From the NCBI RefSeq assembly GCF_055900595.2, contig NZ_CM148325.1: a DNA stretch of 64,000 bases; one strand, given 5' to 3'. Numbering within the stretch: the first letter of the stretch is position 1; every line of letters begins with the position of its first letter. Of this stretch, positions 8,059-64,000 are shown piece after piece. The notes below the pieces were generated by a model. It did no database searches. It was not told the origin of the DNA and was given only the letters and a program-made list of their open reading frames with translations. The position numbers and the translations under genes are program-made.

Positions 8059-8061
8059 GCA

Positions 8062-9410: not shown

Positions 9411-9422
9411 ATGGAAGTTCGT

Positions 9423-13573: not shown

Positions 13574-16500
13574 TTACTTATTTAGCGTCGCACGAATAAT
13601 TGGCCCTATTTTTTCAAACGCCATCGGCGAGATAATATCCACATGCGCGCAATCATGACGATAGATATCCAGCTCCGCAATCCATGGTGCCCAGGCCCGT
13701 TCGGGAGTCATCCCCTCCTGAAGCGTGCGTTCGGCAACAAACAGCGTCGCTTTTCCATCAAACGGAACACTATGGGCAGTGGTCAACAAGCGCACTGCAT
13801 CAGCGTAGTTGCCTTCAATGGTGGTAAACAGCTCCGTTGAAGTATTTCCCTGCTGTGCCGCCAAGAAAGCTTCACGTTCGCGGTTAATCTCCGCCAACAC
13901 TTCCGGGTCCAGACCATTAGCTTCTTTTTCCTGCCAGTTCTGCGTTTCTGGCGGCCAGGTATCCAGCAAGCCAAGAAATGCCACCTGTTCGCCACGGGCA
14001 CGCAGCCGTGCCGCAATCCCCTGCGCCAGCGTACCGCCCAGCGAATACCCCAGCAGGTAATAAGGGCCGTGCGGTTGTTGTTCAAGTAACGTTGCCAGAT
14101 GTGCTTCGCAGACTTCATCCAGGTTTGCCGCCGTCTGCATGGGGCCATGAGGGCGCGGAGACTGGATGCCAATAATCGACCATTGAGGATCGAGATAACG
14201 CGAGAGCACGCTAAACTGCCAGGCAAAACCAGATGCTGGATGGAAACAAAACAGCGTCGGGCCATTACCTTCACGCAACGGCAGGATGGTTTCAAATCCC
14301 ATGCGCTGGGTGCTGTCTTCTTCACCATCAATAACCGTTGCCAGTTTGGCGACGGTTGACGCGACCATCACCTGCCCCGGCGTCACCTGACGGGCAAACT
14401 GTCGACTAAGTTGTGCTGCCAGTTTCATTGCCAGTAGCGAATGACCGCCAAGCGCGAAGAAATCAGCGTCAGCATCCTGCACGTCACAACCCAGCAATGA
14501 CGAGAACGCCGTGGCGATAATCGTTTCACTGCCCGCTTTCGGCGCACGCCCCGACGCTTGTGCCTTCAGTTCCGGCAACGGTAAGGCTTTGCGATCCAGC
14601 TTACCGTTGGCGCTAAGTGGTAACTGCGGCAGTTGCAGCAGAACCACGGGCACCATATGCGGTGGCAATTTTTCGCGAAGCTGCGCCTGCAATGCGCTGG
14701 TATCCAGCGGCAGGCCCGATTGCGACACCAGATAGCCCACCAGTTGACGCGCATCCCCCCCGGTGGCTGCCGCCTGATTAATCACACAAGCGTGGGTAAC
14801 TGCTTGCTCGACATCCGGCAGAGCCTGCATCACGCGATCGATTTCGCCCAGTTCAATCCGCTGACCACGAATTTTTAGCTGATCATCACTACGCCCGAGA
14901 TACTCCACCGCGCCGTTATCCAGCCAGCGGGCAACATCTCCGGTACGGTACATGCGTTCACCTGGCGCGAAAGGATCGGCAATAAAGCGGCTGGCTGTCA
15001 GATCGGGTCGTCCAAGATACCCCTGCGCCAGTTGAATACCGGTGAGATAGAGATCGCCTGCCACACCCGGCGGCACCGGATGCATCATCGCATCGAGAAT
15101 GCGCAGGCCCGTGTTCCACACCGGGTAGCCAATCGGCACACTGCTGCCGCGTACCGCTGCAAGTTCAGCACCAAAGGCTGGATACCAGCTCACATCCACC
15201 GCCGCTTCCGTCGGGCCATAAAGATTATGTAACGGCGCGCCAGTTAACTGCTGCCATTCGCGACATAAATCGGCTGGTAAGGCTTCTCCACTACAGAAAA
15301 CCTGTTTCAACGTCGCGCAACTCTGGCGAGCGGTTTCCGGCGTCAACGAAGCAACAAACGCCGCCAGCATCGACGGTACAAAATGCGTGGTCGTTACGCC
15401 ATATTCAGCAAAGAATTGCTGCATAGCGAACGGATCGCGGTGCGCTTCCGGTTCAGCCATCACCAGTTTCGCCCCTGCAATAAACGGCCAGAAAAACTCC
15501 CACACCGAGACATCAAAACTGCACGGCGTTTTTTGGGCAACAACATCTTCGCCTGTGAGCGGGTAGTGGTTTTGCATCCATAACAGGCGGTTAACGATAG
15601 CCGTCTGCCCGACCATCACCCCTTTCGGCCTGCCGGTGGAACCGGAGGTAAAGATGATATAAGCCGTGTGGTGCGGTTGTGAAAGTTGCAGCGGCGCACT
15701 GCCCTGCGGTGTAAGCGGGGCGTTATAGCAAAGACTGGTTAAATTGGGGATATCGCTAAAGCGCGGCAGTTGATCATCGGTGGTGATTAACAGTGACGGA
15801 CGCGCATCTTCCAGCATCATTTTCAGGCGATCGTCCGGATAGCCCGTATCCAGCGGTAGCCAGGCCGCACCTGCTTCAACTATCGCATGTAGCGCCATAG
15901 TCAAAAAGACCGAGCGCGGTAGTGCCACCGCTACGCTGTCGCCAGGTTTAACGCCGCGCTCACGCAGCAGATTCGCCAGCGCCACCACCTGCTCGCGCAT
16001 TTCCCGATAACTGAACTGGTAACGCACATCTGCCAGTGCCGGAGCATCCGGCGTTTTTGCCGCCTGTTCTGCCACCAGCGCGCTCAGTGTGGTTTCTGGA
16101 ATCTCAACCTGAGTGGCGTTGATCTGCGCCAGCTGTGCATACTCTTCTGGCAGCAGAATATCGACATCGCCGCACAACCGCGCCGGATCCGCGGCAAACT
16201 GCGCCGTCAGCATTTTCAGCCGTTCAGCATGCTTGATTAACGTTGGCTCATCGTAACGCTGTTTATTGGCGAGGATCTCAATACTCAAATCACCGTTTTC
16301 ATCCGGGAAAAGGGCCAGTTCAAGGTCATTAACCGGACCGGTTGCCAGGGTATGGGTTTGCGCCTGTACCCCCGGAATATCTAACTGATAATCAAATACT
16401 TTAATATTGAGCACCGGACCGAACAGCGGTTCCTCTCCCGCCGCGCGCCCGCTGTCACGGACAATTTGTTCGGCATCGTAACGTTGATGACGACGCATTT

Positions 16501-46289: not shown

Positions 46290-47039
46290 TCAGTCAATTG
46301 TTTTGTTTATTCCATCTGTGACGCCGATTATTTTCTCAAAATAATGAGATGGCGTGACACCATAATAATCTTTAAATGCACATATGAAATATGAAGTACT
46401 GTTATAGCCACATTTCTGGGCTACGACATTGATAGAATAAGAGTTTGAAGTTATGAGTTTTTTTGCATACCTCATCCTAGTATCTCTCAATATTTCAGTA
46501 AATGACGTTCCTTCATCCCTTAATCTTTTTTTTATTAAACTTTCACTCGTATAAATCAATTCCGCAATATCTTTTAAATGCCATTGCCGCTCAATATTAA
46601 AACTGATTATTCCAGTAATTTTACATGTAAATGTATTTATATTTGTTAGTATAAATGAATTTACACTTTCGCGTTTTTTGAACATGGCAAGTAAGGATAT
46701 ACATAGTCTTTCTTTTAACCAAAGGGAGTGTGAGTCTGCTATTTTAATCCCTTCAAACAGAGAAAAAACAAGCGATAATGGAGGTTCCTCTTCAGCAATA
46801 TAGCCATTCTTATCAAGAGTAAATTTGCCAGGCAACTCATTATTCACGTCGATAAAAAAGGATAAACATGTTTTCTTATCTATATCAACAATTCTTAGTT
46901 TAGAGGGGCATACTGGTAACTCTCTTCTAATTTTGTCGCTTACAATAAACAATGAATTTTTTTTGAACGAGATAACTCTCCTGTTTATAATTAAATCAAA
47001 TGATTGACAGATGAAAACTACGGAGCAAACATAATCCAT
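46290..47039 (-). CDS. appY: AraC-family transcriptional activator AppY
   Basis: 249-aa [36 protein letters not shown]...; AT-rich gene and AT-rich upstream region (47040-47600). Confidence 0.9.
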
Positions 47040-47714
47040 CTTGCACCTATCATAAAATTAAAACAAGTTGATAGTAGTCAAATAACAGCCAATTAAATAC
47101 ACAATCATAATCAGGATGATGTGCATTTATATTTTTATACACAAAATTATAGTTTGCAAATTTTAATAAGTTTCATTTAAGATTAAATTATTATATGTAT
47201 ATTGTTTTTTATTCTAACGTATTTCAAAGTTACATTTTTCAACGCTTACTATGCTTTTTATTAACATAAACTCACTACAACGCACCTGAAACCTCTTGCT
47301 ATATATATGTCAACCGTTTGAATTTAAAATAAAAAGAGTATCATTTTTACTTGCATTTCTTATCAAGTCACATTCAACAACAGTAAAAAAACATTATTAG
47401 AACCATTCAATTAACAAAAAACCAACATCCAGCTTGCTTAATTTTTCTTTATTAAACGATATTGAAAATCAATTGATAAAATACATCTAAACAACCTTTT
47501 GGGGCGCAAAAGCATAACATCAAACAAACAAATAACACACCGAAAAAACTCACAATTAATAACCTATGATATACATACTGTTTATTATGGTTGAATAAGC
47601 CACTCGATATCTGGTGCTACGGAAGTGTCCACACGGTTTAGCAGCACCCGATACTTTTTCCAGGCTTCCAGCAACGAGTTTTCTTCCTCCGTTGCATATA
47701 CAGCTCACCTTTTT

Positions 47715-48008
47715 TCACCCACGATTAACCAACAGCCAGACCAGCAGACACGCCACCACCGGCACAGCAAAATCCATCAGGCTTGCCACATCCCATGCAC
47801 GTGTATCAAAACCGCCCCACCACGGCATATTCATTCGCTTGCCATGCCCGAACATTTCGATCCAGCGATATTCTGCCTGGGTGTGTTCACGCGCAATGAA
47901 GAACGTACAACCGGCTATCGCCCCGTAAGCCCAGTTTCCGGTAAAAAGACCAACCAGTACCTGCGCAGCCACAGCACAAAGTGCATGAAGGAAAGGTGTT
48001 ATATCCAT
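47715..48008 (-). CDS. Hypothetical small membrane protein (prophage-borne)
   Basis: 97-aa ORF with two strongly hydrophobic segments (LHALCAVAAQVLVGLF..., FAVPVVACLLVWLLV); no family recognised. Confidence 0.4.
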   Translation of the reverse strand: MDITPFLHALCAVAAQVLVGLFTGNWAYGAIAGCTFFIAREHTQAEYRWIEMFGHGKRMNMPWWGGFDTRAWDVASLMDFAVPVVACLLVWLLVNRG

Positions 48009-48018
48009 TATTCCTCCT

Positions 48019-48723
48019 TTATCCGATATCGCTTCGGGAAGTTAATAACAACTTTAATTCTGACTCAAGTTCATCAACTCTTTCAGTCAGCTTCTGGATA
48101 TGGTGAATCAGTGGAACAACCAGACGTTCGTACATTACACCTTCGGCAACAAGGCCATTGCTGGAAATAGCTTCAGGAGCATCATCTTCGTTAGCTGGTC
48201 GCCAGTGTACAAACTGAGGGGCAATTTCTCCTACTTCCTCGGCAATCAATCCGTAGAACCCCCAGTCACGCCTGTCATTTTCGCATTGCGACCTGTACCA
48301 CACAGGGCGCATCCTGAAAATGACATCGGCGTGCTCTGAATCTATCGTCTCTACTGAATGTTTATAGCGGATAGACGATGTGGACCGCAGTACAGACGAA
48401 ATTGCAGGGTCAGGATTAAGATAAAGGTTTGCCGCCGCAGTAGTCGTGCCCAACCCCCATAAATAAAACGCTTCGCGGCCAGTCAGCGGGTAAAAATCAC
48501 CGCCATAACGACCGCTTTCCAGATCGTTCGCTTCCACTTTGTTTTTCAGCTTATTATCAACTTCAGTTTTTGTGTATCTGGTGCTGATATCCTGCTTTGC
48601 ACTGGTCATATCAATCTGAAGCGTTGATACTTTTCCGTTAATTGAGGAAATATCTTCCTTAGTTTTACTGACATCTCCCTTTAGCGTGGTGATATCTCCA
48701 GGAATTACTGTCGATGTAGCCAT
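48019..48723 (-). CDS. Putative tail-fibre segment with a C-terminal intramolecular-chaperone (peptidase S74-like) domain
   Basis: N-terminal repetitive coiled-coil-like region (TLKGDVSKTKEDISSINGKVSTLQIDMTSAKQDIS) followed by GFYGLIAEEVGEIAPQFV, typical of the self-cleaving chaperone domain of tail fibres and spikes; recognition from memory. Confidence 0.5.
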   Translation of the reverse strand: MATSTVIPGDITTLKGDVSKTKEDISSINGKVSTLQIDMTSAKQDISTRYTKTEVDNKLKNKVEANDLESGRYGGDFYPLTGREAFYLWGLGTTTAAANLYLNPDPAISSVLRSTSSIRYKHSVETIDSEHADVIFRMRPVWYRSQCENDRRDWGFYGLIAEEVGEIAPQFVHWRPANEDDAPEAISSNGLVAEGVMYERLVVPLIHHIQKLTERVDELESELKLLLTSRSDIG

Positions 48724-48732
48724 TTGTCTCCC

Positions 48733-49014
48733 TCACATCCAGCCACGAAGTTGATGCTCAACAACAACCGCGTATTCATCGAATATTGACGGTGTTTTCA
48801 CATCATTAATGATGCGCACGTTTACAAAATATCCGTCTTCCTTAACACATACCGGCTCGCCATCTTCAGTAATTTCCCCGGTTTCTTTGTACACGTTACC
48901 TATCACATCAATGAGAACATTGTTCTGCATCACCTCGTCATCGTCATAACCAATGCTATCCATAAAGGCCGAAAAGTCGGCCTTGTCTGTGAATTTGATA
49001 ATTAAGTCTCGCAT
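48733..49014 (-). CDS. Hypothetical acidic protein (prophage tail region)
   Basis: 93-aa ORF between the two tail-fibre-like genes; no family recognised. Confidence 0.4.
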   Translation of the reverse strand: MRDLIIKFTDKADFSAFMDSIGYDDDEVMQNNVLIDVIGNVYKETGEITEDGEPVCVKEDGYFVNVRIINDVKTPSIFDEYAVVVEHQLRGWM

Positions 49015-50024
49015 TATATTACCTCTCCCATTTGTGCATCGGTTAATTCTTTATGCCATATACGAAAATTACGAATGTGACCGAAAAGATGACGTAGACC
49101 GCTATTAGTCTGTCCCCCAATCCTGAAGAAATAACCAGATTTAACACCGACATGATCCGTGGTTTTAGGAGTCCCATGCTGGGCATTGCTAACGAAATGC
49201 ACATTACCAGATTCATTTAAAACAAATCCAAGAACAGATTTTTGTTCAAATAATACTGGCGATACGGCGGCTACTGTACTACCGTTTTTATTGTGCATCG
49301 TAACACCAGGAAATAATGTTGAACTAATAGCAACACTTATATATTGACCCGGAGTTGTGCTCCCACCACTGGTATCAAAAATTCGTGGTGCTGCATTTGG
49401 CGTTTCGTTCCAGTTTGTATGAACTTCAGCTAGAAATGTTAAAGGTGGTGTACCGATATTGTTATTTGTTGGTATATTCACCATATCACTGGCTCTTGTG
49501 ACTGGCGTTGCCTCAGTAATAATAAACGAAGAAGCGCACGAACCGCCTTCGACCTGAGGAGTTGCAACATAAATATAATCATCTGCACCAGTGCTTCCCC
49601 CTTTTGGTGGTGCATATTGCACCATCGCACCGATCATATTTTCTGTATCAAGTGCCTTAATTGTTGCCTCAAAGAAAATCCATTTGCTTGCTTCATTTTT
49701 AACAGCCCTTGCAGTAATACGACTTGCAGCGCCGCCAGTTTTATCAATCGATAAATCTGTCATATTTAAGTAAGCATCACCCAGGAATTTGTAGGTAGAT
49801 CCATCATATTCTTCAAATCGTAATCGACATCTTAAATTTGGAGTCCCACTTTGTACCCTGCATGAGATAGTTACATACTTTTCATCGCCGGTAACATCAT
49901 ATCCTTTGCTTCCAGATACTGTGACAATAGAAATGGCTGAGGTTTGCCCCACCATTTCTGGTTTTAATGTGAATTTTGCGTACTGGAAACCAAAATCATC
50001 TACACCTGATGTATTTAAAATCAT
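49014..50024 (-). pseudogene. Putative phage tail-fibre / receptor-binding protein, probably 5'-truncated by IS1
   Basis: ORF 49014-50048; its first Met codon lies inside the IS1 terminal inverted repeat and the next in-frame ATG (50024) has no ribosome-binding site; C-terminus ...GYFFRIGGQTNSGLRHLFGHIRNFRIWHKELTDAQMGEVI resembles lectin-like tail-protein domains. Confidence 0.45.
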
Positions 50025-50049
50025 ATTTGATGACGGTAATGACTCCAAC

Positions 50050-50553
50050 TTATTGATAGTGTTTTATGTTCAGATAATGCCCGATGACTTTGTCATGCAG
50101 CTCCACCGATTTTGAGAACGACAGCGACTTCCGTCCCAGCCGTGCCAGGTGCTGCCTCAGATTCAGGTTATGCCGCTCAATTCGCTGCGTATATCGCTTG
50201 CTGATTACGTGCAGCTTTCCCTTCAGGCGGGATTCATACAGCGGCCAGCCATCCGTCATCCATATCACCACGTCAAAGGGTGACAGCAGGCTCATAAGAC
50301 GCCCCAGCGTCGCCATAGTGCGTTCACCGAATACGTGCGCAACAACCGTCTTCCGGAGCCTGTCATACGCGTAAAACAGCCAGCGCTGGCGCGATTTAGC
50401 CCCGACATAGCCCCACTGTTCGTCCATTTCCGCACAGACGATGACGTCACTGCCCGGCTGTATGCGCGAGGTTACCGACTGCGGCCTGAGTTTTTTAAGT
50501 GACGTAAAATCGTGTTGAGGCCAACGCCCATAATGCGGGCAGTTGCCCGGCAT
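50050..50553 (-). CDS. insB: IS1 InsB reading frame (expressed as an InsAB' fusion by -1 frameshift)
   Basis: 167-aa ORF ...[33 protein letters not shown]...; overlaps insA. Confidence 0.85.
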
Positions 50554-50747
50554 CCAACGCCATTCATGGCCATATCAATGATTTTCTGGTGCGTACCGGG
50601 TTGAGAAGCGGTGTAAGTGAACTGCAGTTGCCATGTTTTACGGCAGTGAGAGCAGAGATAGCGCTGATGTCCGGCGGTGCTTTTGCCGTTACGCACCACC
50701 CCGTCAGTAGCTGAACAGGAGGGACAGCTGATAGAAACAGAAGCCAC
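50472..50747 (-). CDS. insA: IS1 InsA protein
   Basis: 91-aa [43 protein letters not shown]... Confidence 0.85.
50488..50499 (-). promoter_or_regulatory. IS1 programmed -1 ribosomal frameshift site (A6C run)
   Basis: Minus strand reads CTTAAAAAACTC in the insA / insB overlap. Confidence 0.5.
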
Positions 50748-50801
50748 TGGAGCACCTCAAAAACACCATCATACACTAAATCAGTAAGTTGGCAGCATCA
50801 C

Positions 50802-51430
50802 CCATTACCGCCCATAATGATGATATTAGTGACGCCCTCACTAAATTCTGCGTAGCTCTCAATATCATCATTTGGATCAAAAGTTTCTTTATCCTTACCT
50901 GACCACTCAGCACCGCCAGACTGAGTGATGATATTTTGTGGTTTAATATTCCAGTCCAGCTCATAACGTTCAATACCATCGCCCTCAATGATATTTTTCC
51001 CCGTTGTGATTGCCTGAACGGCAAGCCATTCAATACGTGCACGAATAGCTTTAGCCTGATTTACAATCGCCTGTTTAACTTTAATATTACGCGCTCCAAA
51101 AGCATTGTATTGCTCAGGTGATACACCAGCAGGGCGCACAGCTAACTTATTTGGATCAATGCTGCTTTTCGGCTTCATATAGCCTGGACGAATTGTTTTT
51201 GATTCGAACCCTTCGTCACGTGAAACTTTACTACCCACCATAGGAGAACAAAACGCTGCAATTGGGATATTTGGATCGTCGATTGTATCAAGAATAATAT
51301 CGCGCGATTCAAACATTACCGAGCGAGTAAAAAACAAACTGGTAAACAACGCATTTAGTTGTTTTTGTACATCTACAGCATTAACCACCTGTACAAGCTG
51401 AGTAGGCGAATATAAATCAACCATACGCAT
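50802..51430 (-). pseudogene. Divergent lambda-E-like major capsid protein gene, 3'-truncated by IS1
   Basis: ATG at 51430 gives MRMVDLYSPTQLV... (compare lambda E MSMYTTAQLLA); continues ...NIITQSGGAEWSGKDKETFDPNDDIESYAEFSEGVTNIII (compare lambda E NNITQSGGTEWSKRDKSTYDPTDDIEAYALNASGVVNIIV), then runs into the IS1 end after about 206 codons. Confidence 0.6.
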
Positions 51431-51640
51431 CCTCTTTGCATTCATTAAAAATAATTGTGGATATATGCTATCACCGATATTTGTCATGCGAACACATGCA
51501 ACCGAGTGCAATGTTGTATAAAGTTTTGGGGTGACAACTTCAGTGCGGACAATTAGTGTTAATATCTTCACTCCCTTTGGTCGGGATTTATGTAGCATGC
51601 CGGAAAATTTATTTTTTCTGGCTTTTTTTATTGGCAATAT

Positions 51641-52090
51641 TTAAAACGGGATATCATCTCCCCATTGCTCATTATCTCCCACTGGTGGCTGGCTTCCTTG
51701 CTGATCTGCCTGTTGTTTTGCTCTGTTCAGTGCGTCAGTAGCCTGCCCCTGTTGGCCTTTATTGCCGCCCGGTCGCACCGATCGCGCACTGATTACGCTG
51801 TCTGCGATAACCTGCCAGCCCTGCCGCGTTTCGCCGTTCTGTCCAGTCCACTGGCTCATCTGCATGTTACCCGCCACGCTCAGGAGTTCGCCTTTGTGAT
51901 GCTTTGCCAGCGCGTCGGCTTGTCTGCCAAACGCCAGGACAGATAACCACATCGTCGCCTGACCGTCATCCGACTGACTGCAGGGCAGTGATACCGCCAT
52001 ACGCGCCAGCGTCATGGGGGTGCCCTTGCTGGTCTGTTTTGTCTGCGGGTCGTCCACCAACCGCCCGTAAACTGATATTTGCGCCGTCAT
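51641..52090 (-). CDS. ssb: Single-stranded DNA-binding protein
   Basis: 149-aa ORF with an OB-fold-like N-terminal region, a Gly/Gln-rich linker and the acidic SSB tail ending DDIPF. Confidence 0.75.
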   Translation of the reverse strand: MTAQISVYGRLVDDPQTKQTSKGTPMTLARMAVSLPCSQSDDGQATMWLSVLAFGRQADALAKHHKGELLSVAGNMQMSQWTGQNGETRQGWQVIADSVISARSVRPGGNKGQQGQATDALNRAKQQADQQGSQPPVGDNEQWGDDIPF

Positions 52091-52332
52091 GCTGCCTGCT
52101 CTCCGGACTTAATATTGATTGTTGTCACTTCCTCCGCTTCAGCAATCTCCCGTTCGGTCAGAGTGGCAAAGTTTGCAGCCGCCGTTGTCATGAATGCGCT
52201 AATCAGTTCGGGATGTGCTTTCGCGTATCCTTCCCCGGCGTTGCGGTCGATGATTTTTATCGACACCCTTAACCAGTGTTCCGTCAAATCAAGGGCGTGC
52301 GATTGTGATTTTTTTGTGTGCTTCGCTGTCAT
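52087..52332 (-). CDS. Hypothetical protein, translationally coupled to ssb
   Basis: 81-aa ORF whose stop overlaps the ssb start (ATGA); no family recognised. Confidence 0.45.
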   Translation of the reverse strand: MTAKHTKKSQSHALDLTEHWLRVSIKIIDRNAGEGYAKAHPELISAFMTTAAANFATLTEREIAEAEEVTTINIKSGEQAA

Positions 52333-52379
52333 AGGCTTTATCTCACAGCAGTAAATTAAAATTTTTGCGTTTTAACCCT

Positions 52380-52610
52380 TCACCTGTTCACCTTTTGATA
52401 TTTTCTCTTTTAATTCATAATGTTAATGGGTGAACAGTTTCACAAAAACTATTCACCAACTGTTCACCACTGTTCACCCTTGAAGCTCAATAAACAATCA
52501 AAAAGGTGAACAGTGAATAGTTTGGTGAACAGTTCATAAATAACTGTTCACCCTATAATATACTGATATAAAAGATATTTATGACAGGGTGAACAGTGGT
52601 GAACAGTTAT
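52380..52610. repeat. Iteron array (about ten copies of CTGTTCACC / GGTGAACAG in both orientations), putative satellite origin of replication
   Basis: Copies near 52385, 52429, 52451 (variant), 52461, 52471, 52505, 52524, 52545, 52588 and 52598, interspersed with AT-rich spacers; the octamer TGTTCACC is the P4 type I iteron as recalled; lies directly 3' of the primase gene. Confidence 0.65.
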
Positions 52611-52619
52611 TCCATAAGT

Positions 52620-54440
52620 TTAATTTTTGCTATCGTCATTAGTGACCGATACACATGATGGCATCCAGTCTTCTGATTCCTCCGTCAGTGTCACGTTTGA
52701 ACGCAAACCGTGCTTCGTTTTCCGTTTCATATACTCCCTGCCATATTCCGCCATTGCCCCCGGCATATCTTTACCGAAGCGCGTCAGTGTTACAGGTTTA
52801 CCAAACCCATGTGCCCTCATATAAGCCAGATAGGCATGATAGAGATACCTGCGTGGGCTAAATGGCACAATTTCAGCATTACCCACTAACAGGCCATCAC
52901 ACATTACCGATGCCATGAGATAGCCGCAGAAGTCCACCAGCGAATCCCCCTCTCGCTTTATCGCCAGTGCTTCTTCAGATTTCTGCTGCTCATATAACAG
53001 GCGTCTGGCTTCGTCCTGATCATCAAACCGTGTAAGCAGATGACGAATCACTACCGCCAGCTCACCTTCTATTTTTTCCGCCAGCATCGAATCGCGTTCG
53101 TTCTCCGGTACAACTTCCGAAAAATTGAATATCACCCGACGACGTGAGATCCCCCCGCTGCGGTCACTGAATGACATGGCGTTATTGTTAACCGCCAGCA
53201 CTACTGCCGGAATACGCGTTGAATAGGGGGCTTTGTGTTTCGGGTCAATTGCCACCTTGTCACCGCCTGTAATGGCCTTAATCCCTGCCCCATCACCAGC
53301 GTAGCGGGTCATATCCGGCATGATAATCAGCGAAAAGCCAACCACTAACGCACGTTCCCTTGCATCTTCCAGCGCCTTCATGCTTGCTGATACTGTATTA
53401 GCCTTACCCGCCAGCATGGTGCAAATCTCCGCCATCACACTTTTACCACTTCCCCCCGGCCCTGTTACCTCAATGAATAACTGCCAGTCGTACCGGTTCG
53501 CCAGCACCATGAATAATGCCGCCAGTACGCGATCTGCCTTGCGGTCATTCTCAGCCACCGAACGGCGCAACCACTTCCAGAAATTCGGCGCATGTGTTGC
53601 CAGCGTTTCCCCCTCTGCTGGTGGGCTGAAAGGTAATTCACTGGCAATTAACAACCAGTCGTTTTTGTTATGCTCCCGAAAATTACCTGTTCTGGTATCA
53701 AATACCCCGTTACTGAATCCAATCAGGTTACGGGCTGTATTCCCCATTACAGGCAAACTTAACTTCATGGTATCTACCGCCGATTTAATGGCGTTCTGCG
53801 AATAGCTGATCTCCACATCAATGAAAATCTGCGCCATAGCACGCTGTAACTCTTTATCCTGAACCGGCTCCCATACAACGCCGTTGTAATGATGAACGGT
53901 GTCAGAGTCGGCATTGATTGCCAGTTCGCCGCCGTAATGTGCCAGGAGAACTTCACCGCGCTGGCTGGCCCCCATCTGATTCAACGCCAAAGATGAAGCA
54001 CGCTCGTCATTTTTGCGCTCTGCCTTCTTCACTGGCAGTTCAATCACCAGACTTTCCCCATGCTCCGCTTCAGCTTTTAGGCCGACAAGGCGCGGAGTCC
54101 AGTCTTCAGGCTCTCGATCAACAAAGCTACGGTAACAACGTGCTTCCTTTACGCCTGCAATAGCAAGTAATGTCGCAACCTTCGTCAGATTTTTCTCTGC
54201 GATCTTTCCGGCACGATAAACACGCACATAATGACGGCCTTCATCGATAATTTGCATATCATCCAGGTTTTCCAGTTGTTCCGTACCCAGAATTACTGGT
54301 GGTGTATCATCTGCTGCAATATGCTTACCCGCCCATTCATTCCATTCTTTTGCATGGCTCCAGGCATCACTGCCAGCAAAAATGATGACTTCTGTCATTT
54401 TGTCGCGCGGTTGGTATTTTAAGTTCGGAGCACGTTTCAT
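52620..54440 (-). CDS. Primase/helicase-type replication initiator (P4 alpha / D5-like, P-loop NTPase)
   Basis: 606-aa ORF; Walker A GPGGSGKS in the C-terminal half; iterons immediately downstream. Confidence 0.8.
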   Translation of the reverse strand: MKRAPNLKYQPRDKMTEVIIFAGSDAWSHAKEWNEWAGKHIAADDTPPVILGTEQLENLDDMQIIDEGRHYVRVYRAGKIAEKNLTKVATLLAIAGVKEARCYRSFVDREPEDWTPRLVGLKAEAEHGESLVIELPVKKAERKNDERASSLALNQMGASQRGEVLLAHYGGELAINADSDTVHHYNGVVWEPVQDKELQRAMAQIFIDVEISYSQNAIKSAVDTMKLSLPVMGNTARNLIGFSNGVFDTRTGNFREHNKNDWLLIASELPFSPPAEGETLATHAPNFWKWLRRSVAENDRKADRVLAALFMVLANRYDWQLFIEVTGPGGSGKSVMAEICTMLAGKANTVSASMKALEDARERALVVGFSLIIMPDMTRYAGDGAGIKAITGGDKVAIDPKHKAPYSTRIPAVVLAVNNNAMSFSDRSGGISRRRVIFNFSEVVPENERDSMLAEKIEGELAVVIRHLLTRFDDQDEARRLLYEQQKSEEALAIKREGDSLVDFCGYLMASVMCDGLLVGNAEIVPFSPRRYLYHAYLAYMRAHGFGKPVTLTRFGKDMPGAMAEYGREYMKRKTKHGLRSNVTLTEESEDWMPSCVSVTNDDSKN

Positions 54441-54724
54441 TTGTTACCTCCGGCAACTAACATTGCCCGAATTTTGCGGATATAGCCTGCGGCACGCCTC
54501 TGATTATCTGTCTTGCAATTTTTTACCAGAATGAAATCTCTTTCGAACTGCTGACGCGGCATAACACATTCAAAATCATAACCATCACGCAAATAAGAGA
54601 CACGACGATCATCAACCGAAATAATCTTTACCCGATAGCCATAGCTGTCTTTGAAAATATCCCCAAGGCTGATTTTTGAATGAGTTTGACCGCTGGCAAT
54701 AAAGCCAGAAAATTTATTTTTCAT
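54437..54724 (-). CDS. Hypothetical small basic protein, translationally coupled to the primase
   Basis: 95-aa ORF with a GGAG ribosome-binding site 8 nt upstream of the ATG; stop overlaps the primase ATG (ATGA). Confidence 0.45.
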   Translation of the reverse strand: MKNKFSGFIASGQTHSKISLGDIFKDSYGYRVKIISVDDRRVSYLRDGYDFECVMPRQQFERDFILVKNCKTDNQRRAAGYIRKIRAMLVAGGNK

Positions 54725-54727
54725 TTT

Positions 54728-54952
54728 TTATTCTCCGGTATAGCTCTGGTCGTGTATTTTTATAGCTTCATCCAGCTCTTTGATGACAGGATCAAGTAAC
54801 GTAATTAACGCTCCAGCTAAATTAGCATCCCGTTCATCGTGTTCCGCATTTGTTGTCCCATCAAGCCAGGTTGATAAGATTTCTCGCATATTTTTGCCAC
54901 AAACGAGCGCGTTTTCAGCATGTGTCAGCACTTTAAAATAAAGATCATTCAT
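54728..54952 (-). CDS. Hypothetical small acidic protein
   Basis: 74-aa ORF in the same operon-like array upstream of the primase. Confidence 0.4.
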   Translation of the reverse strand: MNDLYFKVLTHAENALVCGKNMREILSTWLDGTTNAEHDERDANLAGALITLLDPVIKELDEAIKIHDQSYTGE

Positions 54953-55148
54953 GGCACACCTCCTGACGAATACGGGCGGCGAATATCATCACGTAGCCAG
55001 TTGGGGATTGCAGCCGGGCTTCCTGTTCGCTGGCGGCCTCGATGGTAATCACGCGCGGTTGTGCCGTACTCAGGGCGATAAAACGCCAGATGTATTTATT
55101 CAGGTTGTGCGGGTCCCGCCCTTGCGGGTGTGTGGTATGATTTCTCAT
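54945..55148 (-). CDS. Hypothetical small protein (first gene of the leftward replication operon)
   Basis: ATG at 55148 with a GAGG ribosome-binding site 7 nt upstream gives MRNHTTHPQGRDPHNLNKYIWRFIAL...; the longer ORF to 55259 is probably an extension. Confidence 0.4.
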   Translation of the reverse strand: MRNHTTHPQGRDPHNLNKYIWRFIALSTAQPRVITIEAASEQEARLQSPTGYVMIFAARIRQEVCHE

Positions 55149-55287
55149 AGCTACCTCGATACTGTTGCTATCGTTGGTGGTTAGAAGCCCGTTGGTGTTC
55201 CTAGCACCTTCGGGCTTTGCTTTTTTAAGTGCCTCCGTGTTAAGGTGGTCACCTAACAATGAAAAGGCTAATTCAATAGGTGGTCAC

Positions 55288-55479
55288 TTGTCAACGATCA
55301 AACGCGATAAAAGTCCTAAGGGTGATGGGCAATCTCCACAATTCAGAATGCGAATTTCTCCAGAGCTAAAAGAGCAATTCGACAAAGAAGCGCAGAGCGA
55401 CGGCATAAGCCTAGCCAACTGGCTTAAAGAATTAGGGCGCAAAGAGCTGCTACGGCGCGGTATTGAACCAAAAGGATAA
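55288..55479 (+). CDS. Putative ribbon-helix-helix (Arc/MetJ-like) DNA-binding protein
   Basis: TTG at 55288 preceded by AGGTGG; product ...FRMRISPELKEQFDKEAQSDGISLANWLKELGRKEL has the beta-strand then two-helix pattern of Arc-type repressors; an alternative ATG start at 55348 is possible. Confidence 0.5.
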   Translation: MSTIKRDKSPKGDGQSPQFRMRISPELKEQFDKEAQSDGISLANWLKELGRKELLRRGIEPKG

Positions 55480-55506
55480 GAATAATTGAAGTCAAGGAGC
55501 TAACAC

Positions 55507-55863
55507 ATGAAATACGAATTCTTCGCAACAAGTAGCAGTAGTTTGGATGTATACATAGTCACTGTATCAAACGATTCTGGCTCTCTAATCATGACTTGTA
55601 ATTGTCCAGCAGGAAGTAAAGGTATTCTATGTAGACACCGTAAAGCTTTAATTACCGGAAAAATCCGCGGTATATTCACTCCCCCAAGAAGGAATAATCC
55701 CGAAAAATTACAAGAAGCTATAAATTTAATAGCCACATATGGCATAGATAAAACATTAAAGTTGTACACTGATGAGTTAGAACGAGCAGAACAGACTTGG
55801 ATAAGTGTTCGCGATAATTTGAGAGCAATGATAAACGCTCTTGTTGAACCACCTAAATATTGA
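55507..55863 (+). CDS. Small SWIM-type zinc-finger protein
   Basis: 118-aa ORF with an AAGGAG ribosome-binding site; CNCPAGSKGILCRH fits the SWIM CxCx(n)CxH motif. Confidence 0.55.
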   Translation: MKYEFFATSSSSLDVYIVTVSNDSGSLIMTCNCPAGSKGILCRHRKALITGKIRGIFTPPRRNNPEKLQEAINLIATYGIDKTLKLYTDELERAEQTWISVRDNLRAMINALVEPPKY

Positions 55864-55929
55864 ACTGTTCACATTGCCTATCAGGCGATAACCTCGTATT
55901 CTGATTAAGGCTAACTATATACTCACATT

Positions 55930-55955
55930 GGCGACCAATTCTGGTCGCCTTTATC
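55930..55955 (+). terminator. Rho-independent terminator after the SWIM gene
   Basis: GGCGACCA-ATTC-TGGTCGCC hairpin followed by TTTATC. Confidence 0.5.
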
Positions 55956-55994
55956 TACCATTTTTATAATATCATAGATTAAGAGTGTTAATCC

Positions 55995-56816
55995 TTACCC
56001 CCTGAATGGAATTGATGAGGATTTAATTTCCACAGAACCAAATCCTCTTGAATCCAAAAACATTTTTATACCAGCCTCAATAAAATCATAATCGCTTGTC
56101 GGGCCAATTGTAATGCTTTTAATTGGTAACTTTCTATTATCTTTATTATTAATAATGATATAAGGGATGATACCATTATTATTTATTCTAAATTTCACAT
56201 CTGGCATTTGTATCCACGGAGTAAACACCAGTCTAAATTCATTTTCTTCGATAAAACTAGGATGTTTAAAAAATGGGATATATTTAGATATAAATTGATA
56301 CGTAGAGACCATTGTTACAAAATGATCATTCATTTCTTTAATGTTAATACCATTACAAGAAAAAAACTCATCCAACTCCTTACTCATCTTTGTAATATCG
56401 TCATTATTTGAATATATAACATCATGTGCAACACAATTTAAATAAATATTTTGACAAAAACTCACAAGTTCATCCGCATCAAATTCAATGCAAACGCCCT
56501 GTTTATTTCCGTAACCTCTCCACTGACTTAACTTATCGTTTTCTTTACAAAAAGATATGCTATAAACATGTTTATCAATCCCTTTTTCTTTTTGTAACTT
56601 CCCTTTCTCATACATGTCAAGAGACTTGAGCAAAATAGTTTTCTTATCTTTTGGGATGATATTATCATCAACTATTTTAATTGTATTTCGAAAACATTCA
56701 CATCCATGGTTAGACTCCTCTTTATCATTTAAGAAATATATATTTGTAGCCCATAAAGAATTAGAGTCTAATATACCTTTCAAACCAAAAAGATCTGTAT
56801 AATGAAATATAGCCAC
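55995..56816 (-). CDS. DUF2971-like protein of unknown function on an AT-rich cargo segment
   Basis: GTG at 56816 preceded by AGGTGG gives (M)AIFHYTDLFGLKGILDSNSLWATNIYFLNDKEE...; the N-terminal aromatic-HYT ... LW ... NDxxE pattern is assigned to DUF2971 from memory; markedly AT-rich by eye compared with the neighbouring int/alpA. Confidence 0.6.
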   Translation of the reverse strand: MAIFHYTDLFGLKGILDSNSLWATNIYFLNDKEESNHGCECFRNTIKIVDDNIIPKDKKTILLKSLDMYEKGKLQKEKGIDKHVYSISFCKENDKLSQWRGYGNKQGVCIEFDADELVSFCQNIYLNCVAHDVIYSNNDDITKMSKELDEFFSCNGINIKEMNDHFVTMVSTYQFISKYIPFFKHPSFIEENEFRLVFTPWIQMPDVKFRINNNGIIPYIIINNKDNRKLPIKSITIGPTSDYDFIEAGIKMFLDSRGFGSVEIKSSSIPFRG

Positions 56817-56833
56817 AATGCCCCACCTAATAG

Positions 56834-57064
56834 TTAAGTCGTTTCCCACTCACCTCGAATCCATGCCTGCACTTCTGAAAGACGATATGCAACAGCAGTG
56901 GAACCAATCTTGATCCGCTTAGGAAATTTTCCTTCCTTCTCCAGCTTCCAGCGTGTGCTGTTCGCAAGAGTGGTTAGCTCCCGACATTCTTTCTCACGGA
57001 TCATACGATCGATGTTAGGAATGTACTCCAGACCCTTTTTATCAACAATTGCCATTTTTTTCAT
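56834..57064 (-). CDS. alpA: AlpA-family transcriptional regulator / excisionase-like protein
   Basis: 76-aa MKKMAIVDKKGLEYIPNIDRMIREKECRELTTLANSTRWKLEKEGKFPKRIKIGSTAVAYRLSEVQAWI..., immediately downstream of the integrase. Confidence 0.8.
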   Translation of the reverse strand: MKKMAIVDKKGLEYIPNIDRMIREKECRELTTLANSTRWKLEKEGKFPKRIKIGSTAVAYRLSEVQAWIRGEWETT

Positions 57065-57065
57065 G

Positions 57066-58301
57066 TTAACCAGCCTTTTGTTTGAGGATTGTCACTTTTG
57101 AATCAGCACCTGCGATGCTATTGAGATATGTAGTCCAGAGTTCCAGAGCATCCAGTTTTTTAGCCATAAACTTACTCCGGTTGTAAACACCCGCCACGCC
57201 AGGTAGCGCATGGCCTAACAGTTGTTCTACTACATAAAATTCAACACCGAGATCACTTAGATGAGTAGATAGCGTTCTTCTAAGGTCGTGTAGTGACCAT
57301 TGTTTTTCATGGCCCAAACGTTTACCGATTTTCCCCCCAATCTTGCTTACGCTTTCTCTAATTCGCAGACTTCCCAGCACATAACCAGTATGTTTTGTCT
57401 CTTCGTGAACATCCGTTACCCACTGTCGTAGAATTTCAGGTACTGGTCTGACGATTTCAACACCAGTTTTTGAGTGATCTTTTGGTACCGTCCAAACCCA
57501 ACTTTCGAGATCCCATTCGCTCCATTCAGATAATCGGGCTTCACTCATTCGACATCCAAATACTGTACAAAGCACAAACATTTTTCGCGTGTATTCAGAC
57601 ATTAGTTTTAAATCAGGCTCGACAAAAATTGCCTTCCAGAGCTGGCCGAGTTCGGCTTCATCCAGAACCCGATCCCGCTTACCTGCAATCTGCCCCACAT
57701 CACTCATGCGCAAATCCTTTAAAGCATCACACGTCGCGTACTGGCGTACCCGACAAAAACGAAGAGCTAATTTAGTGTCAGAAAAAACATACGCCGCCAT
57801 AACTGGTGCATTACGTTTAATTCGGTCAAAACAGTCCAGCCATTCATATAGGTGAGTGTCATTTACGGGCAAATGACCGATATAGGGAAAGATATGCTTT
57901 CGAAATCTGCCAAGCGTTACAGCATGAGTTTTACGACGCACCTTACAGTAATTTTCATACCAGTAATTTAGTGCATCCTCCACTGTGACCGGCTTTAAGC
58001 GTTCTTCAGCCTGAATCTTAATCTGGATACGCGGATCACGTTTGTCAGCCAACCAACCACGGCACTCGTCGCGCTTTTCCCTTGCCTGTTTGAGTGACAT
58101 ATCAGGATATTTACCCAACGTTAGCCAGACCGGAGCAGCCCGGCCACCTGCTAACCTGTAGAAGAAAACAAAGCTCACAGCCCCTTTAGTACTCACACGA
58201 ATAGAAAGCCCCTTTCCATCAGCAATGGTGATCTGCTTTTCTCTGGGTTTCCCCAGATATCCTTTAAGCGCTTTGTCGCTCAGTTTGTTCTCGCCAGCCA
58301 T
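57066..58301 (-). CDS. Tyrosine recombinase, P4-type integrase
   Basis: ATG at 58299-58301 gives MAGENKLSDKALKGYLGKPREKQITIADGKGLSIRV...; C-terminal catalytic region with ...HDLRRT... and ...LLGHAL...Y motifs; the 5' end sits about 160 bp from the point where the E gene breaks. Confidence 0.85.
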   Translation of the reverse strand: MAGENKLSDKALKGYLGKPREKQITIADGKGLSIRVSTKGAVSFVFFYRLAGGRAAPVWLTLGKYPDMSLKQAREKRDECRGWLADKRDPRIQIKIQAEERLKPVTVEDALNYWYENYCKVRRKTHAVTLGRFRKHIFPYIGHLPVNDTHLYEWLDCFDRIKRNAPVMAAYVFSDTKLALRFCRVRQYATCDALKDLRMSDVGQIAGKRDRVLDEAELGQLWKAIFVEPDLKLMSEYTRKMFVLCTVFGCRMSEARLSEWSEWDLESWVWTVPKDHSKTGVEIVRPVPEILRQWVTDVHEETKHTGYVLGSLRIRESVSKIGGKIGKRLGHEKQWSLHDLRRTLSTHLSDLGVEFYVVEQLLGHALPGVAGVYNRSKFMAKKLDALELWTTYLNSIAGADSKVTILKQKAG

Positions 58302-58433
58302 TTTTAGCCCCAAAAAGCAATACAAGCTGCAATACAGAGATGATTGCAACACACAGATAACGAGGAAAATTCAGTGAAAGCACCAGATAAACTTATTCTT
58401 TATTATCAAAAGATTAAGTGTAAAAACCAGCAA

Positions 58434-59106: not shown

Positions 59107-60418
59107 TTATACCGGTAAAGCTTCAGGTGTATTAAGTAATTCTTTATTGGTATCAGATGCCAGGTTACCTGCAGCCAGCGGTGCCGGTGCACCCTGCATC
59201 AGACGATCCAGCGCAGTGTCACTGCGCGCCTGTGCACTCTGTGGTGCTGCAGCCAGAATGCGGCGGGCCGTTTCCACGGTCATTCCGGGGGTTTCGGCCA
59301 GAACGCGCGCCTGTTCTTCGCGTCCGTGAGCCTCCTCACAGTTGAGGATCCCCATAATGCGGCTGTTTTCTGCCGCAACCGCTGCGGTGATCTGCGCGTT
59401 CACGTCCGGCTGCGCCGCGCTGGCGTTTTCGCCCTCCGTCGCTGGCACCACGTCAGTAACGTCAGCCTGCGAAGCAGTGGCTGAAACAGTTGTTGATTGA
59501 GTCTCTTTGGTCATTCGCCCTCCTGAGAGACGGGATTTACGCGCATCCAGTGCATCACGCATGACGGTGATCGCATCGGTGCTGTTAACAAGTTCATCAG
59601 CCAGTCCGGCATCAATGGCCTCCTGACCGCTGTACACTGCAGCCTCGGTATCCAGCACAGCCTGCACAGACAGGCCGGTATATGCCGACACCTTCTGCGC
59701 AAACATCTGGCGGGTTGCGTCCATCCGGGACTGCAGTGTCTCCCGGACGTCATCCGGAAGATGGCTGTAGGGATTGCCATCCACCTTATGGCTGCCGCTG
59801 TAAATCAGCGTGATTTCCACACCCTGTTTCTCCAGGGCAGCACCGTAATTACTGTGAGCCATCATGACGCCGATGGAGCCTGTCCGGGCGGTCTGCGTGA
59901 CCAGACGCCGGGAGGCGGCACTGGCAAGCAGCTGACCTGCACTGCAGTTCATGTCGTTGGCCAGCGCCCATACCGGTTTTATGTCACGCACACGGGCGAT
60001 GATGTCAGCGCAGTCAAATGCCCCCGCCACCATTCCGCCTGGCGTGTCCATATCGAGCAGAATGCCGTCCACCATCGGGTCGCTGGCAGCCTGTTGCAGA
60101 CGGGCGATAATGCCGTTGTAACCGGTCATCCCCGAGTACGGCTGCAGCGCCCGCGTCCGGCTGACCAGCGTGCCGGACACCGGCAGCACGGCGATGCCGT
60201 TCATGACCTGATAACTGCGGGCCTGTCGTGGTCCGTCATCATCACCGGATAATGCCAGCGTCGCGAGTGCCTCCTGGGCAGTCAGGCTGTCGCCGGACAC
60301 CGCATCCGTCAGGCGGCTGATCCCAAGCTGGCCTGCAAGCGCACAAAAGAAAACCCGCGCATAGGCGGGTTCAAGCATCAGCGGCTCATTAAAGGCCATG
60401 CTGGCAATATGCGGGAGA

Positions 60419-60438
<20 letters not shown>
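59107..60438 (-). CDS. Head maturation protease / scaffold (lambda C-like, with nested Nu3-type scaffold frame)
   Basis: GTG at 60438 gives (M)TAELRNLPHIASMAFNEPLMLEPAYARVFF...; overlaps the portal gene end by about 20 nt as in lambda. Confidence 0.85.

Positions 60439-64000
<3,562 letters not shown>

Follow-up and report, generated by a model that had tools for sequence, protein, structure and literature searches.

We wanted to know what four minus-strand genes lying between an IS1 element and appY are, and whether they still form a working unit. They belong to a stretch of 64,000 nucleotides of contig NZ_CM148325.1 (assembly GCF_055900595.2), hereafter called the window, and a preliminary description drawn from the letters of this DNA had presented them as a tail-fibre remnant block covering 47715-50024.

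Identity and coding status of the block

The ORF listing places all four ORFs on the minus strand where that description had put them, and the right end of the block was moved from 50024 to 50034. Each ORF matches a PHROG family end to end (Table 1), and dN/dS against prophage homologues is 0.12-0.33 across the four genes, the signature of purifying selection acting on all of them in related prophages. The PHROG matches and the dN/dS values argue against chance ORFs, that is, against the non-conserved fragments without coding signal which the description itself had named as the alternative. Decaying pseudogenes were also considered for these ORFs and rejected on dN/dS and 100% identity.

Among the matches listed, 2,635 nt of this DNA were found at 100% identity in at least nine complete E. 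coli genomes, and at 99.9% or more in at least 11. In the prophage of E. coli strain 980-2, the same DNA follows J and lom with a full-length stf, in the order tape-measure...J-lom-stf(794)-93-234-97-tfa remnant-appY, which bears out the claim of a tail-fibre remnant; the block is 97.5% identical to phage IdasGreatGrand (PP925829). From these alignments, the block represents the 3' portion of the side-tail-fibre (Stf) module of a lambdoid prophage, an ordinary module, already sequenced and already known. More precisely, it is very probably the part of the late operon farthest from the promoter, carrying a module of the phage 21/IdasGreatGrand type that an IS1-associated deletion left headless.

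Table 1. Features of the block and of its two borders, in the order of the window
Feature	Position	Strand	Basis or remark
tfaX-like C-terminal remnant, 37 codons, 111 nt	47585..47695	minus	between the 97-aa gene and appY
97-aa ORF, predicted three-helix inner-membrane protein	47715..48008	minus	ORF listing; phrog_1443 (1.7e-58)
234-aa ORF, putative distal mini-fibre	48019..48723	minus	ORF listing; PF13884, phrog_3299 (7.9e-140), 8hqz
Peptidase_S74 domain, residues 116-172	48208..48378	minus	Pfam PF13884
93-aa ORF, putative acidic accessory protein	48733..49014	minus	ORF listing; phrog_1361 (2e-43)
Stf-fragment ORF, listed as 344 aa	49014..50048	minus	ORF listing; phrog_1419 (7e-126)
stf 3' fragment, 339 codons of 794-aa gene	49017..50034	minus	100% identity to WP_354142978 residues 456-794
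Possible C-terminal ConA/LamG-like domain of Stf fragment	49032..49487	minus	Pfam Laminin_G_3, sub-threshold
GTA head-spike-fibre-like beta-sandwich domain of Stf fragment	49491..49898	minus	NCBIfam NF048003
IS1, insA/insB	50035..50802 (768 bp)	minus	right boundary of the block; ends read and homology breaks

An IS1 junction cuts the module

To define the right border, the ends of IS1 were read as GGTAATGAC...GCAGCATCACC, with TTTGATGAC and CATTACCGC as flanking sequences. The element has the length, the terminal inverted repeats and the insA and insB ORFs of IS1. When both ends and their flanks at 50035-50802 were read, no 9-bp target-site duplication was present, and its absence points to a junction formed by deletion or recombination. 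The DNA on the right side of IS1 is unrelated satellite sequence which, in other strains, is located inside a prophage capsid gene. The structure of the locus is explained by an IS1-associated deletion that fused the satellite capsid gene to an internal point of stf. The TTG at 50048, from which the listed ORF starts, falls within IS1 and is an artefact as the start of a fibre gene; genuine fibre coding runs from 49017 to 50033/50034, its 339 codons being identical to residues 456-794 of the 794-aa protein WP_354142978. The first 455 codons of stf and every upstream tail gene were lost at IS1, and J and lom are deleted in the window.

In the full-length 794-aa homologue, the PF08400 N-terminal domain covers residues 3-132 (224 bits) and the N-terminus matches the solved structure of the Stf N-terminal region (9e7m). 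This domain is missing from the window copy and the Ala-rich coiled-coil shaft is deleted as well. Since the window Stf starts at residue 456 and is devoid of PF08400, it is a fragment and not a functional Stf of the lambda type; the position of such an Stf, after J and lom, is found in strain 980-2 and in IdasGreatGrand. With the attachment domain and the shaft gone, and no tail gene left between the head genes and stf, no fibre can form. The block in the window is therefore recently stranded cargo and not a functioning unit, and for the window itself it is of little importance, being the dead-end remnant of a common, sequenced prophage module.

At the other border, identity to the K-12 prophage DLP12 is 99.2% from ompT/appY to 47695 and ends there. 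This point lies in a tfaX-like gene, a fifth element overlooked in the preliminary description, of which the last 37 codons are left out of the ~190 residues, with conserved C-terminus, of a full-length Tfa; in identical DNA, the PGAP annotation is that of a tail fiber assembly protein, partial. By its alignment, the remnant marks a recombination breakpoint with a K-12-type DLP12 end. The preliminary description had said that the four genes do not match the K-12 DLP12 gene set (tfaX, ybcY, tfaD). This is correct, but homology to K-12 resumes inside tfaX, so a remnant of tfaX is still there.

The fibre proteins and their domains

The Stf fragment had been called lectin-like. Its NF048003 (GTA_spike_fiber) domain scored 40.5 bits in the fragment and 60.9 in the full protein, for a cut-off of 36, and a profile search with Stf homologues retrieved the RcGTA head spike fibre Rcc01080 (6tb9, E=1.1e-7) and a gp17 tail fibre (9occ, 2.1e-5). 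The match to Laminin_G_3 (PF13385) stayed below threshold (24.5 bits vs 27.6), with E=3.4e-5 over model positions 5-149 of 151. The claim of a lectin-like fibre fragment is borne out in part, and the C-terminal domain may tentatively be seen as ConA/LamG-like and lectin-like. According to the alignment columns, the last ~40 residues of the Stf C-terminus are invariant across alleles.

The next protein, of 93 residues, is acidic as announced, carrying 20 D/E vs 8 K/R. Its phrog_1361 gene is always found downstream of this Stf type, in phage 21 and the virulent Warwickvirus phages too. A fold search gave no functional match for it, and a literature search on the 93-aa and 97-aa proteins returned no match.

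The 234-aa protein is built of an N-terminal dock (MATSTVIPGDITTLKGDVSK), repeats resembling a trimeric coiled coil, a 50-aa tip and a C-terminal Peptidase_S74 domain. Its first 32 residues match the N-terminus of phrog_4563, the whole protein aligns to positions 1147-1383 of the 1385-aa phrog_3299, and it matches a solved L-shaped tail fibre (8hqz) with E=5.7e-8. PF13884 scored 27.3 bits on residues 116-172, above the Pfam cut-off of 22 bits, and 52.4 bits on a 346-aa allele of the gene. Residue 116 is position 1 of the HMM, and a Ser116/Lys121 dyad (S-S-I-R-Y-K, spacing S-x4-K) is predicted there, aligned with SDRDLK in the 346-aa allele and with SSSRYK in Warwickvirus homologues. Self-cleavage before S116 is predicted to leave a mature chain of 115 residues. 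The S74-like chaperone domain proposed in the preliminary description is thereby supported, and its remark that no receptor-binding part is obvious agrees with a chain of ~115 residues after cleavage ending in a 50-aa tip.

To see how the module is composed elsewhere, its order was read from 80 IMG/VR prophage loci. They carry Stf (C-terminus 35-100% identical), an 89-93-aa gene, a middle gene and the 97-aa gene (93-100%), the middle gene being the 234/227-aa allele, the 346-aa allele, or none. Both middle alleles contain S74 and the shared motif M[AV]T[SK]TVIP.DI.TLK.DVSK.

A conserved inner-membrane protein behind receptor-binding genes

The 97-aa protein, noted before as a small membrane protein, was predicted by AF2 to consist of three long helices (residues 4-23, 26-53 and 74-96) with a mean pLDDT of 92.8. 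Its family comprises 469 clusters without a Pfam model, and the 447 representatives at 50% identity are all stand-alone proteins of 63-146 aa. The loop of residues 40-73 (REHTQAEYRWI..FG.GKR.NMPWWGGFD) is near-invariant; R40, E41 and W72 are invariant and H8, Q44, A45, E46 and P83 near-invariant. The dN/dS of the gene is 0.15. K+R counts, read with the positive-inside rule, put the N-terminus and the loop 40-73 on the cytoplasmic side and the C-terminus on the opposite one; the C-tail has 2-4 residues with a mean of 0.6 K+R. Searches of 51 divergent members against Pfam (E<=1) gave no consistent match (the PhoR N-terminal TM in 5/51, holin_8 in 1/51), PADLOC and NCBIfam scans of the protein found no match to defence or exclusion models, and fold searches suggested no function.

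Genes of this type are located directly after receptor-binding-protein genes, and often translationally coupled to them, in siphoviruses (after Stf or J), myoviruses (after a P2 H-like fibre, and in jumbo Aeromonas phages) and podoviruses (after a P22-like tailspike), the hosts being Gamma-, Beta- and Alphaproteobacteria and Desulfovibrio. The protein is widespread, highly conserved and tied to receptor-binding genes. The preliminary description had placed it where lambdoid phages often carry host-modifying moron genes; as to position this is right. The gene has no spacing for a promoter of its own and is often translationally coupled to the fibre gene, so its expression in lysogens is hypothetical. 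When 62 genes upstream of family members were assigned with Pfam and PHROG, in a scan made noisy by crude ORF calling in high-GC genomes, most matches were to families of tail fibres, tail spikes and tail proteins, along with a few chromosomal genes at prophage edges.

Two functions were rejected for this protein: that of a fibre assembly factor, as Warwickviruses have the same fibres but not this protein, and receptor-specific masking of the Cor/Llp kind, as it stays 93-100% conserved while adjacent fibre C-termini drop to 35%. Our guess, held with low confidence, is that the host envelope or DNA entry is what it targets, in the role of an exclusion or envelope-modifying protein. Another reading, likewise held with low confidence, is that it belongs to an undescribed family of phage inner-membrane proteins. 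As its sequence is independent of the type of fibre, its target in the host inner membrane would be a conserved one, and it could be a generic, fibre-linked factor of a new kind for superinfection exclusion or for modulating envelope glycans.

Alternative readings

The 234-aa protein could instead be a chaperone acting in trans, folding the main Stf and then being discarded without becoming a structural fibre. Its sole above-threshold Pfam domain is named 'chaperone of endosialidase', its mature part is tiny, and its homologue in phage PeterMerian is annotated 'putative lateral tail fiber chaperone' (BASEL). However, phage 21 and about 8 of the 80 loci have no S74 gene at all but retain the 92-aa gene and a homologous Stf C-terminus, so Stf needs no 234-aa protein. 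The 346-aa allele, which has the same N-terminus and a globular insert of ~190 aa before S74, shows the layout of a receptor-binding fibre, and the 234-aa protein aligns with the last ~240 residues of fibres that are 1,385 aa long. It also counts against a role in trans that S74 domains act in cis, as in K1F endosialidase and T5 pb1. We consider this role improbable and retain a mini-fibre. For the 97-aa protein, a holin-like or lysis-timing function, in place of an envelope or exclusion one, was weighed in the same way. Three hydrophobic helices in ~97 aa have the size and shape of a class I holin, one of the 51 members weakly matches Phage_holin_8, and a member is encoded 2-3 small genes upstream of an M15 endolysin in two metagenomic phages. 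Though it has three helices, the protein is not predicted to have the class I topology (N-out/C-in with a charged cytoplasmic C-tail), and proximity to the M15 endolysin was seen in these two metagenomic contigs only; where the context is lambdoid, P22-like or P2-like, the gene comes after that of the fibre or spike and well away from the lysis genes. A holin is hence quite unlikely, and action on the envelope or on DNA entry is kept as the tentative reading.

It could also be argued that the three intact genes still work as a lysogenic-conversion (moron) unit that benefits the host and was kept here. They are 100% intact while the rest of the tail region was lost, and they persist beside appY in a second prophage, which was degraded in a different way. 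A 97-aa-type gene sits between the tailspike gene and int in the P22-like phage JEP4; in other P22-like phages, this slot carries gtr, oac or neuO. Yet, the 100% identity to prophages with the full module means that the truncation is recent, so that intactness is uninformative on selection. Moreover, the gap between the 234-aa and 97-aa genes measures only 10 nt, the start of the latter overlaps the stop of the fibre gene in other phages, no excess of promoter-like sites was found (9 sites vs 9.5 expected), and a fibre protein with its accessory has no plausible host function. A unit kept for the host is very improbable, and stranded cargo remains our reading of the block.

A proposed working of the intact module

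The prophage is proposed to occupy the DLP12 site. Judging from homology, in an intact module a trimer of the 794-aa Stf would dock to the tail tip by its N-terminal domain, continue as an Ala-rich coiled-coil shaft and end in the GTA-spike-fibre-like and ConA/LamG-like domains, which would bind a surface glycan. The 93-aa protein would be the cognate accessory or assembly factor of the Stf C-terminus. The 234-aa protein may form a second, exchangeable mini-fibre, trimerised by S74, which would then cleave off at S116; the mature 115-residue trimer would join the main fibre by its conserved N-terminal ~20 residues to give a branched fibre. Made with the late genes, the 97-aa protein would reside in the inner membrane, its loop facing the cytoplasm, and would not be required for fibres.

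Comparison with known systems

The module resembles that of phage 21 (OL657228; CPT_21_22 stf, CPT_21_23 and CPT_21_24), which has the same Stf architecture (N-terminus ~70% and C-terminal 560 aa 50% identical), a small acidic gene (52%) and the 97-aa membrane protein (96%) at the end of the late operon. In contrast, phage 21 has no S74 gene (stf-92-97) and its module is whole, whereas that of the window is cut by IS1. IdasGreatGrand and the 980-2 prophage have the same four genes in the same order after J and lom (97.5% and 100% identity) but keep a full-length stf and the tail genes. A fibre, 92-aa and 231-245-aa S74 protein cassette is likewise found in Warwickvirus (Drexlerviridae; PeterMerian bas05_0029-0031, vB_EcoS_XY3), its S74 protein sharing 57-58% identity with the 234-aa protein, a likeness that extends to the N-terminal dock and the SS.RYK site. 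Unlike the source of the window block, these phages are virulent, lack the 97-aa gene and have a fibre N-terminus suited to a T1-like tail. The stf/~93-aa/S74 cassette is thus common to lambdoid prophages and virulent T1-like Warwickviruses.

The C-terminal S74 with its Ser-Lys dyad, the 'YTKTEVD' shaft repeats and the 8hqz match recall T5 pb1/L-shaped fibres and K1F endosialidase. Those fibres or spikes exceed 1,000 aa, while here there are 234 aa, with ~115 left after the predicted cleavage. In DT57C, the branched lateral fibres consist of two proteins, LtfA and LtfB, and have a conserved N-terminal dock (PMC4728585), and in BASEL phages including IrisVonRoten, a proximal fibre with a galectin-like C-terminal domain bears an IMC-carrying distal fibre (10.1101/2024.09.12.612763). 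The likeness would lie in a separately encoded distal fibre, a short N-terminal dock, a C-terminal IMC and, tentatively, a lectin- or galectin-like end of the proximal fibre; the docking parts of these phages are without sequence homology to the lambdoid module, where we infer attachment. As for Rcc01080 (6tb9), its beta-sandwich is homologous, by profile and NF048003, to the domain of the Stf fragment, but it is placed on the RcGTA head spike, whereas here it occupies the distal end of a tail side fibre, ahead of the putative LamG-like domain. Finally, lambda Stf/Tfa shares the PF08400 N-terminus of the full-length protein (9e7m), the place after J and lom and the adjacent Tfa remnant. The distal half is unrelated to that of lambda, gp37-like tip repeats are absent, and the 93-aa protein and the S74 domain replace a full Tfa. 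The two interchangeable distal-fibre alleles with a shared dock would be useful for lambda Stf chimeras and for host-range prediction.

The four genes belong to a known tail fibre module

Four minus-strand genes of a tail-fibre remnant had been placed beside IS1 and appY in the preliminary description. Four consecutive ORFs were indeed found there, and each matched a PHROG across its whole length: phrog_1443 for the 97-aa ORF (1.7e-58), phrog_3299 for the 234-aa ORF (7.9e-140), phrog_1361 for the 93-aa ORF (2e-43) and phrog_1419 for the 344-aa ORF (7e-126). Measured against distinct copies within 80 IMG/VR prophage loci, dN/dS was 0.15, 0.16 and 0.33 for the 97-, 234- and 93-aa ORFs and 0.12 for the fragment of Stf, the lambda-type side tail fibre. 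These end-to-end matches and low dN/dS values indicate that the ORFs are genuine genes on which purifying selection acts in the population. The G+C content of the block (40-52%) exceeds that of the AT-rich appY side. Description and interpretation were thus supported with minor corrections: the TTG start of the 344-aa ORF falls within IS1, only 339 codons being fibre sequence, the limits of IS1 were revised, and a tail-fibre-assembly remnant had been missed.

Features of the fibre block and its surroundings
Feature	Position	Strand	Remark
appY	46290-47039		left neighbour of the fibre block
tail-fibre-assembly remnant, 111 nt	47585-47695		absent from the preliminary description
four consecutive ORFs (97, 234, 93, 344 aa)	47715-50048	minus	between appY and IS1
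true fibre coding part of the 344-aa ORF	49017-50033	minus	exact match to residues 456-794 of a protein of 794 aa
IS1	50035-50802		exact limits
satellite major capsid gene	50798-51637		truncated by IS1
satellite-like element	50803-58400		right of IS1; counterpart at 2934-14908 of related locus L010
satellite SSB	51641-52090
satellite primase	52620-54440
satellite integrase	57066-58352
prophage head genes (S49 protease, portal, terminase)	59107-63965		resume here

Among the matches listed, the stretch of 2,635 nt between 47400 and the IS1 edge was 100% identical in 9 complete E. coli genomes and at least 99.9% identical in 11. In strain 980-2, the identical DNA lies inside a lambdoid prophage retaining tail-tip genes and a full-length stf, in the order tape measure, minor tail proteins, J, lom, the 794-aa protein (labelled 'prophage tail fiber N-terminal domain'), the 93-, 234- and 97-aa genes, a tfa remnant, appY and ompT. 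In phage IdasGreatGrand these four genes likewise come after J and lom, with 97.5% identity. The block is an IS1-truncated copy of this module, which is already known from phage 21, IdasGreatGrand and many E. coli prophages. The full-length fibre starts with the lambda Stf N-terminal domain (PF08400, 224 bits), matching the solved structure 9e7m, followed by an Ala-rich repetitive shaft; both are absent from the Stf copy in the window. Since the attachment domain, the shaft and the tail genes are missing, the block cannot function in the window. Its perfect identity to prophages with the full module indicates that the truncation is recent, and therefore its intactness is not proof of selection in this host. 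The shaft (residues ~100-350 of the full-length Stf, encoded at 10615-12999 of locus L001) is a long Ala/Ser/Thr/Glu-rich quasi-repeat (…SETNAK.SETAAK.SQ…), and Stf length varies by allele (794 aa here versus 686 aa in phage 21), which suggests expansion and contraction of the repeat.

IS1 marks a junction

The ends of IS1 are intact, with flanks TTTGATGAC and CATTACCGC, and no 9-bp target duplication was seen at these flanks. To its right lies a different element that encodes an integrase, a primase, an SSB and a major capsid protein of its own; in T-HYM1, another strain, this satellite interrupts a lambdoid prophage's major capsid gene. The lack of duplication and the foreign element beyond IS1 indicate a deletion or recombination junction. 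Through this event the satellite capsid gene lost its 5' end and stf its first 455 codons, and the remaining head-completion genes disappeared along with all tail genes. On the appY side, the block had been said to differ from K-12 prophage DLP12, and it does: K-12 carries tfaD, ybcY and tfaX there, and the 99.2% identity to DLP12 that runs from ompT/appY ends at 47695, inside tfaX, indicating that an older exchange inside a tfa gene fused the module to the DLP12 end.

The satellite also encodes DUF2971 and an Icd-like gene. The T-HYM1 copy, which splits the prophage capsid gene into N- and C-terminal fragments, additionally has a head-decoration gene and a restriction endonuclease. The best promoter-like site of the region (50789-50818, + strand, TTGGCA-18-CATAAT, 10/12 matches) straddles the IS1 left end and flanking satellite capsid DNA and is directed away from the fibre block.

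The 97-aa protein defines a fibre-linked membrane protein family

In agreement with its description as a small membrane protein, AlphaFold predicted three long helices in the 97-aa protein (4-23, 26-53 and 74-96; pLDDT 92.8). No Pfam model covers the family, whose members (469 clusters at 90% identity, 447 representatives at 50%) are without exception stand-alone and 63-146 aa long. A one-genome-per-species scan detected it in 41 loci, from Enterobacterales, Aeromonas, Comamonadaceae, Sphingomonadales, Devosia, Chelativorans and Desulfovibrio. From E. coli to Aeromonas and Comamonas, residues 40-73 form a near-invariant loop; across the most distant members R40, E41 and W72 never vary, and H8, Q44, A45, E46 and P83 hardly do. 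Mean K+R is 5.3-5.7 in the loop versus <0.6 in the tails, from which the positive-inside rule predicts a cytoplasmic location for both loop and N-terminus.

The gene lies directly 3' of a receptor-binding-protein gene in the contexts tabled, ACP1 being flanked differently.

Genomic contexts of the 97-aa gene family
Genome	Position of the gene	Junction
lambdoid prophages	after the Stf module
Comamonas prophage	after a 2,520-aa J-like protein
Aeromonas P2-like prophage	after a tail-collar fibre	start overlaps fibre stop
P22-like phage JEP4	after the tailspike	start overlaps tailspike stop; int next
jumbo Aeromonas phage ACP1	flanked by genes for a 1,125-aa hypothetical protein and a putative tail fibre

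One metagenomic phage contig (L095) has two paralogues (3309-3575 and 5001-5288, 42% identical), one directly 3' of a tail fibre gene and the other one small gene past an S74 fibre gene, which suggests one copy per receptor-binding protein. In phage 21 (L003, 7386-10835), the late genes end with the 97-aa gene, which is directly followed on the opposite strand by the sitABCD iron/manganese transporter moron. The virulent coliphages and Salmonella phages HC6 (L100, 3468-3617), ST1UNAM, PBM-2 and PBM-3 have only an unannotated partial match (about residues 41-93), directly 3' of a large putative fibre gene, that looks like a decayed copy.

What could such a protein do? The gene is absent from virulent Warwickviruses sharing the fibre genes, indicating that it is unnecessary for fibre building. 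A receptor-specific mask was ruled out, as the protein remains 93-100% identical while the adjoining fibre tips fall to 35%. A class I holin was also considered: a family gene lies near an endolysin in two contigs, and the topology and the lack of a charged tail argue against this role. The gene is 10 nt from the upstream gene or overlaps it, no excess of promoter-like sites was seen, and it is probably expressed together with the late genes. Our tentative guess, held at clearly less than even chances, is that it acts from the inner membrane on a conserved host target, for example in DNA-entry exclusion or modulation of envelope-glycan synthesis. This uncharacterised family is the one lead worth following.

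The fibre proteins

The 'lectin-like' label of the Stf fragment appears reasonable and only partly demonstrated: residues 51-186 match NCBIfam 'GTA head spike fiber' (40.5 bits versus a 36 cut-off), and the Laminin_G_3 (ConA-like) match of the last ~150 residues is below threshold (24.5 versus 27.6 bits). A 14-allele profile matches the RcGTA head spike fibre Rcc01080 (6tb9, E=1.1e-7) and also a gp17 tail fibre. Across prophages the C-terminal region is hypervariable (35-100% identity) with its last ~40 residues invariant, a pattern that would be expected of a receptor-binding end.

A small gene follows this Stf type in the 80 prophage loci (89-93 aa), in phage 21 (52% identity) and in virulent Warwickvirus phages (48%). 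Given this co-occurrence, the 93-aa protein may serve the Stf C-terminus as its cognate accessory or assembly factor. It is acidic (20 D/E versus 8 K/R). Its AlphaFold model is a small alpha+beta sandwich (pLDDT 80), for which a fold search gave no informative structural neighbour.

The self-cleaving chaperone-type domain attributed to the 234-aa protein was recovered as Peptidase_S74 above threshold (residues 116-172), cleavage being presumed. The domain opens with S116-S-I-R-Y-K121, whose aligned counterparts are SDRDLK (a 346-aa allele) and SSSRYK (Warwickvirus homologues); judged from sequence, this motif is consistent with the Ser-Lys dyad of endosialidase-type intramolecular chaperones (IMC). 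The protein is the counterpart of the final ~240 residues of 1,385-aa fibres (phrog_3299), and among solved structures it matches the L-shaped tail fibre 8hqz; residues 1-32 also match the starts of other short fibre families. In the slot separating the small gene from the 97-aa gene, about 36 of the 80 loci hold a 234/227-aa allele, about 30 the 346-aa allele (same N-terminus, ~190-aa globular insert, stronger S74 domain), and about 8 nothing (phage 21 type). The 346-aa allele (L016, 3918-4958, and about 30 other IMG/VR loci) shares the N-terminal 20 residues and has a canonical SDRDLK S74 site; in L020, a frameshift splits it into ORFs of 189 and 176 aa. A trans chaperone was considered unlikely, because phage 21 Stf folds without the protein and the alleles share a dock and differ mid-protein. 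We therefore read the 234-aa protein as an exchangeable distal mini-fibre, putatively attached by its N-terminus and cleaved. Branched lateral fibres made of two proteins, with a conserved N-terminal dock, have been described for LtfA/LtfB of phage DT57C (PMC4728585). In BASEL phages, IMC-bearing distal fibres are carried by proximal fibres with galectin-like C-terminal domains (10.1101/2024.09.12.612763).
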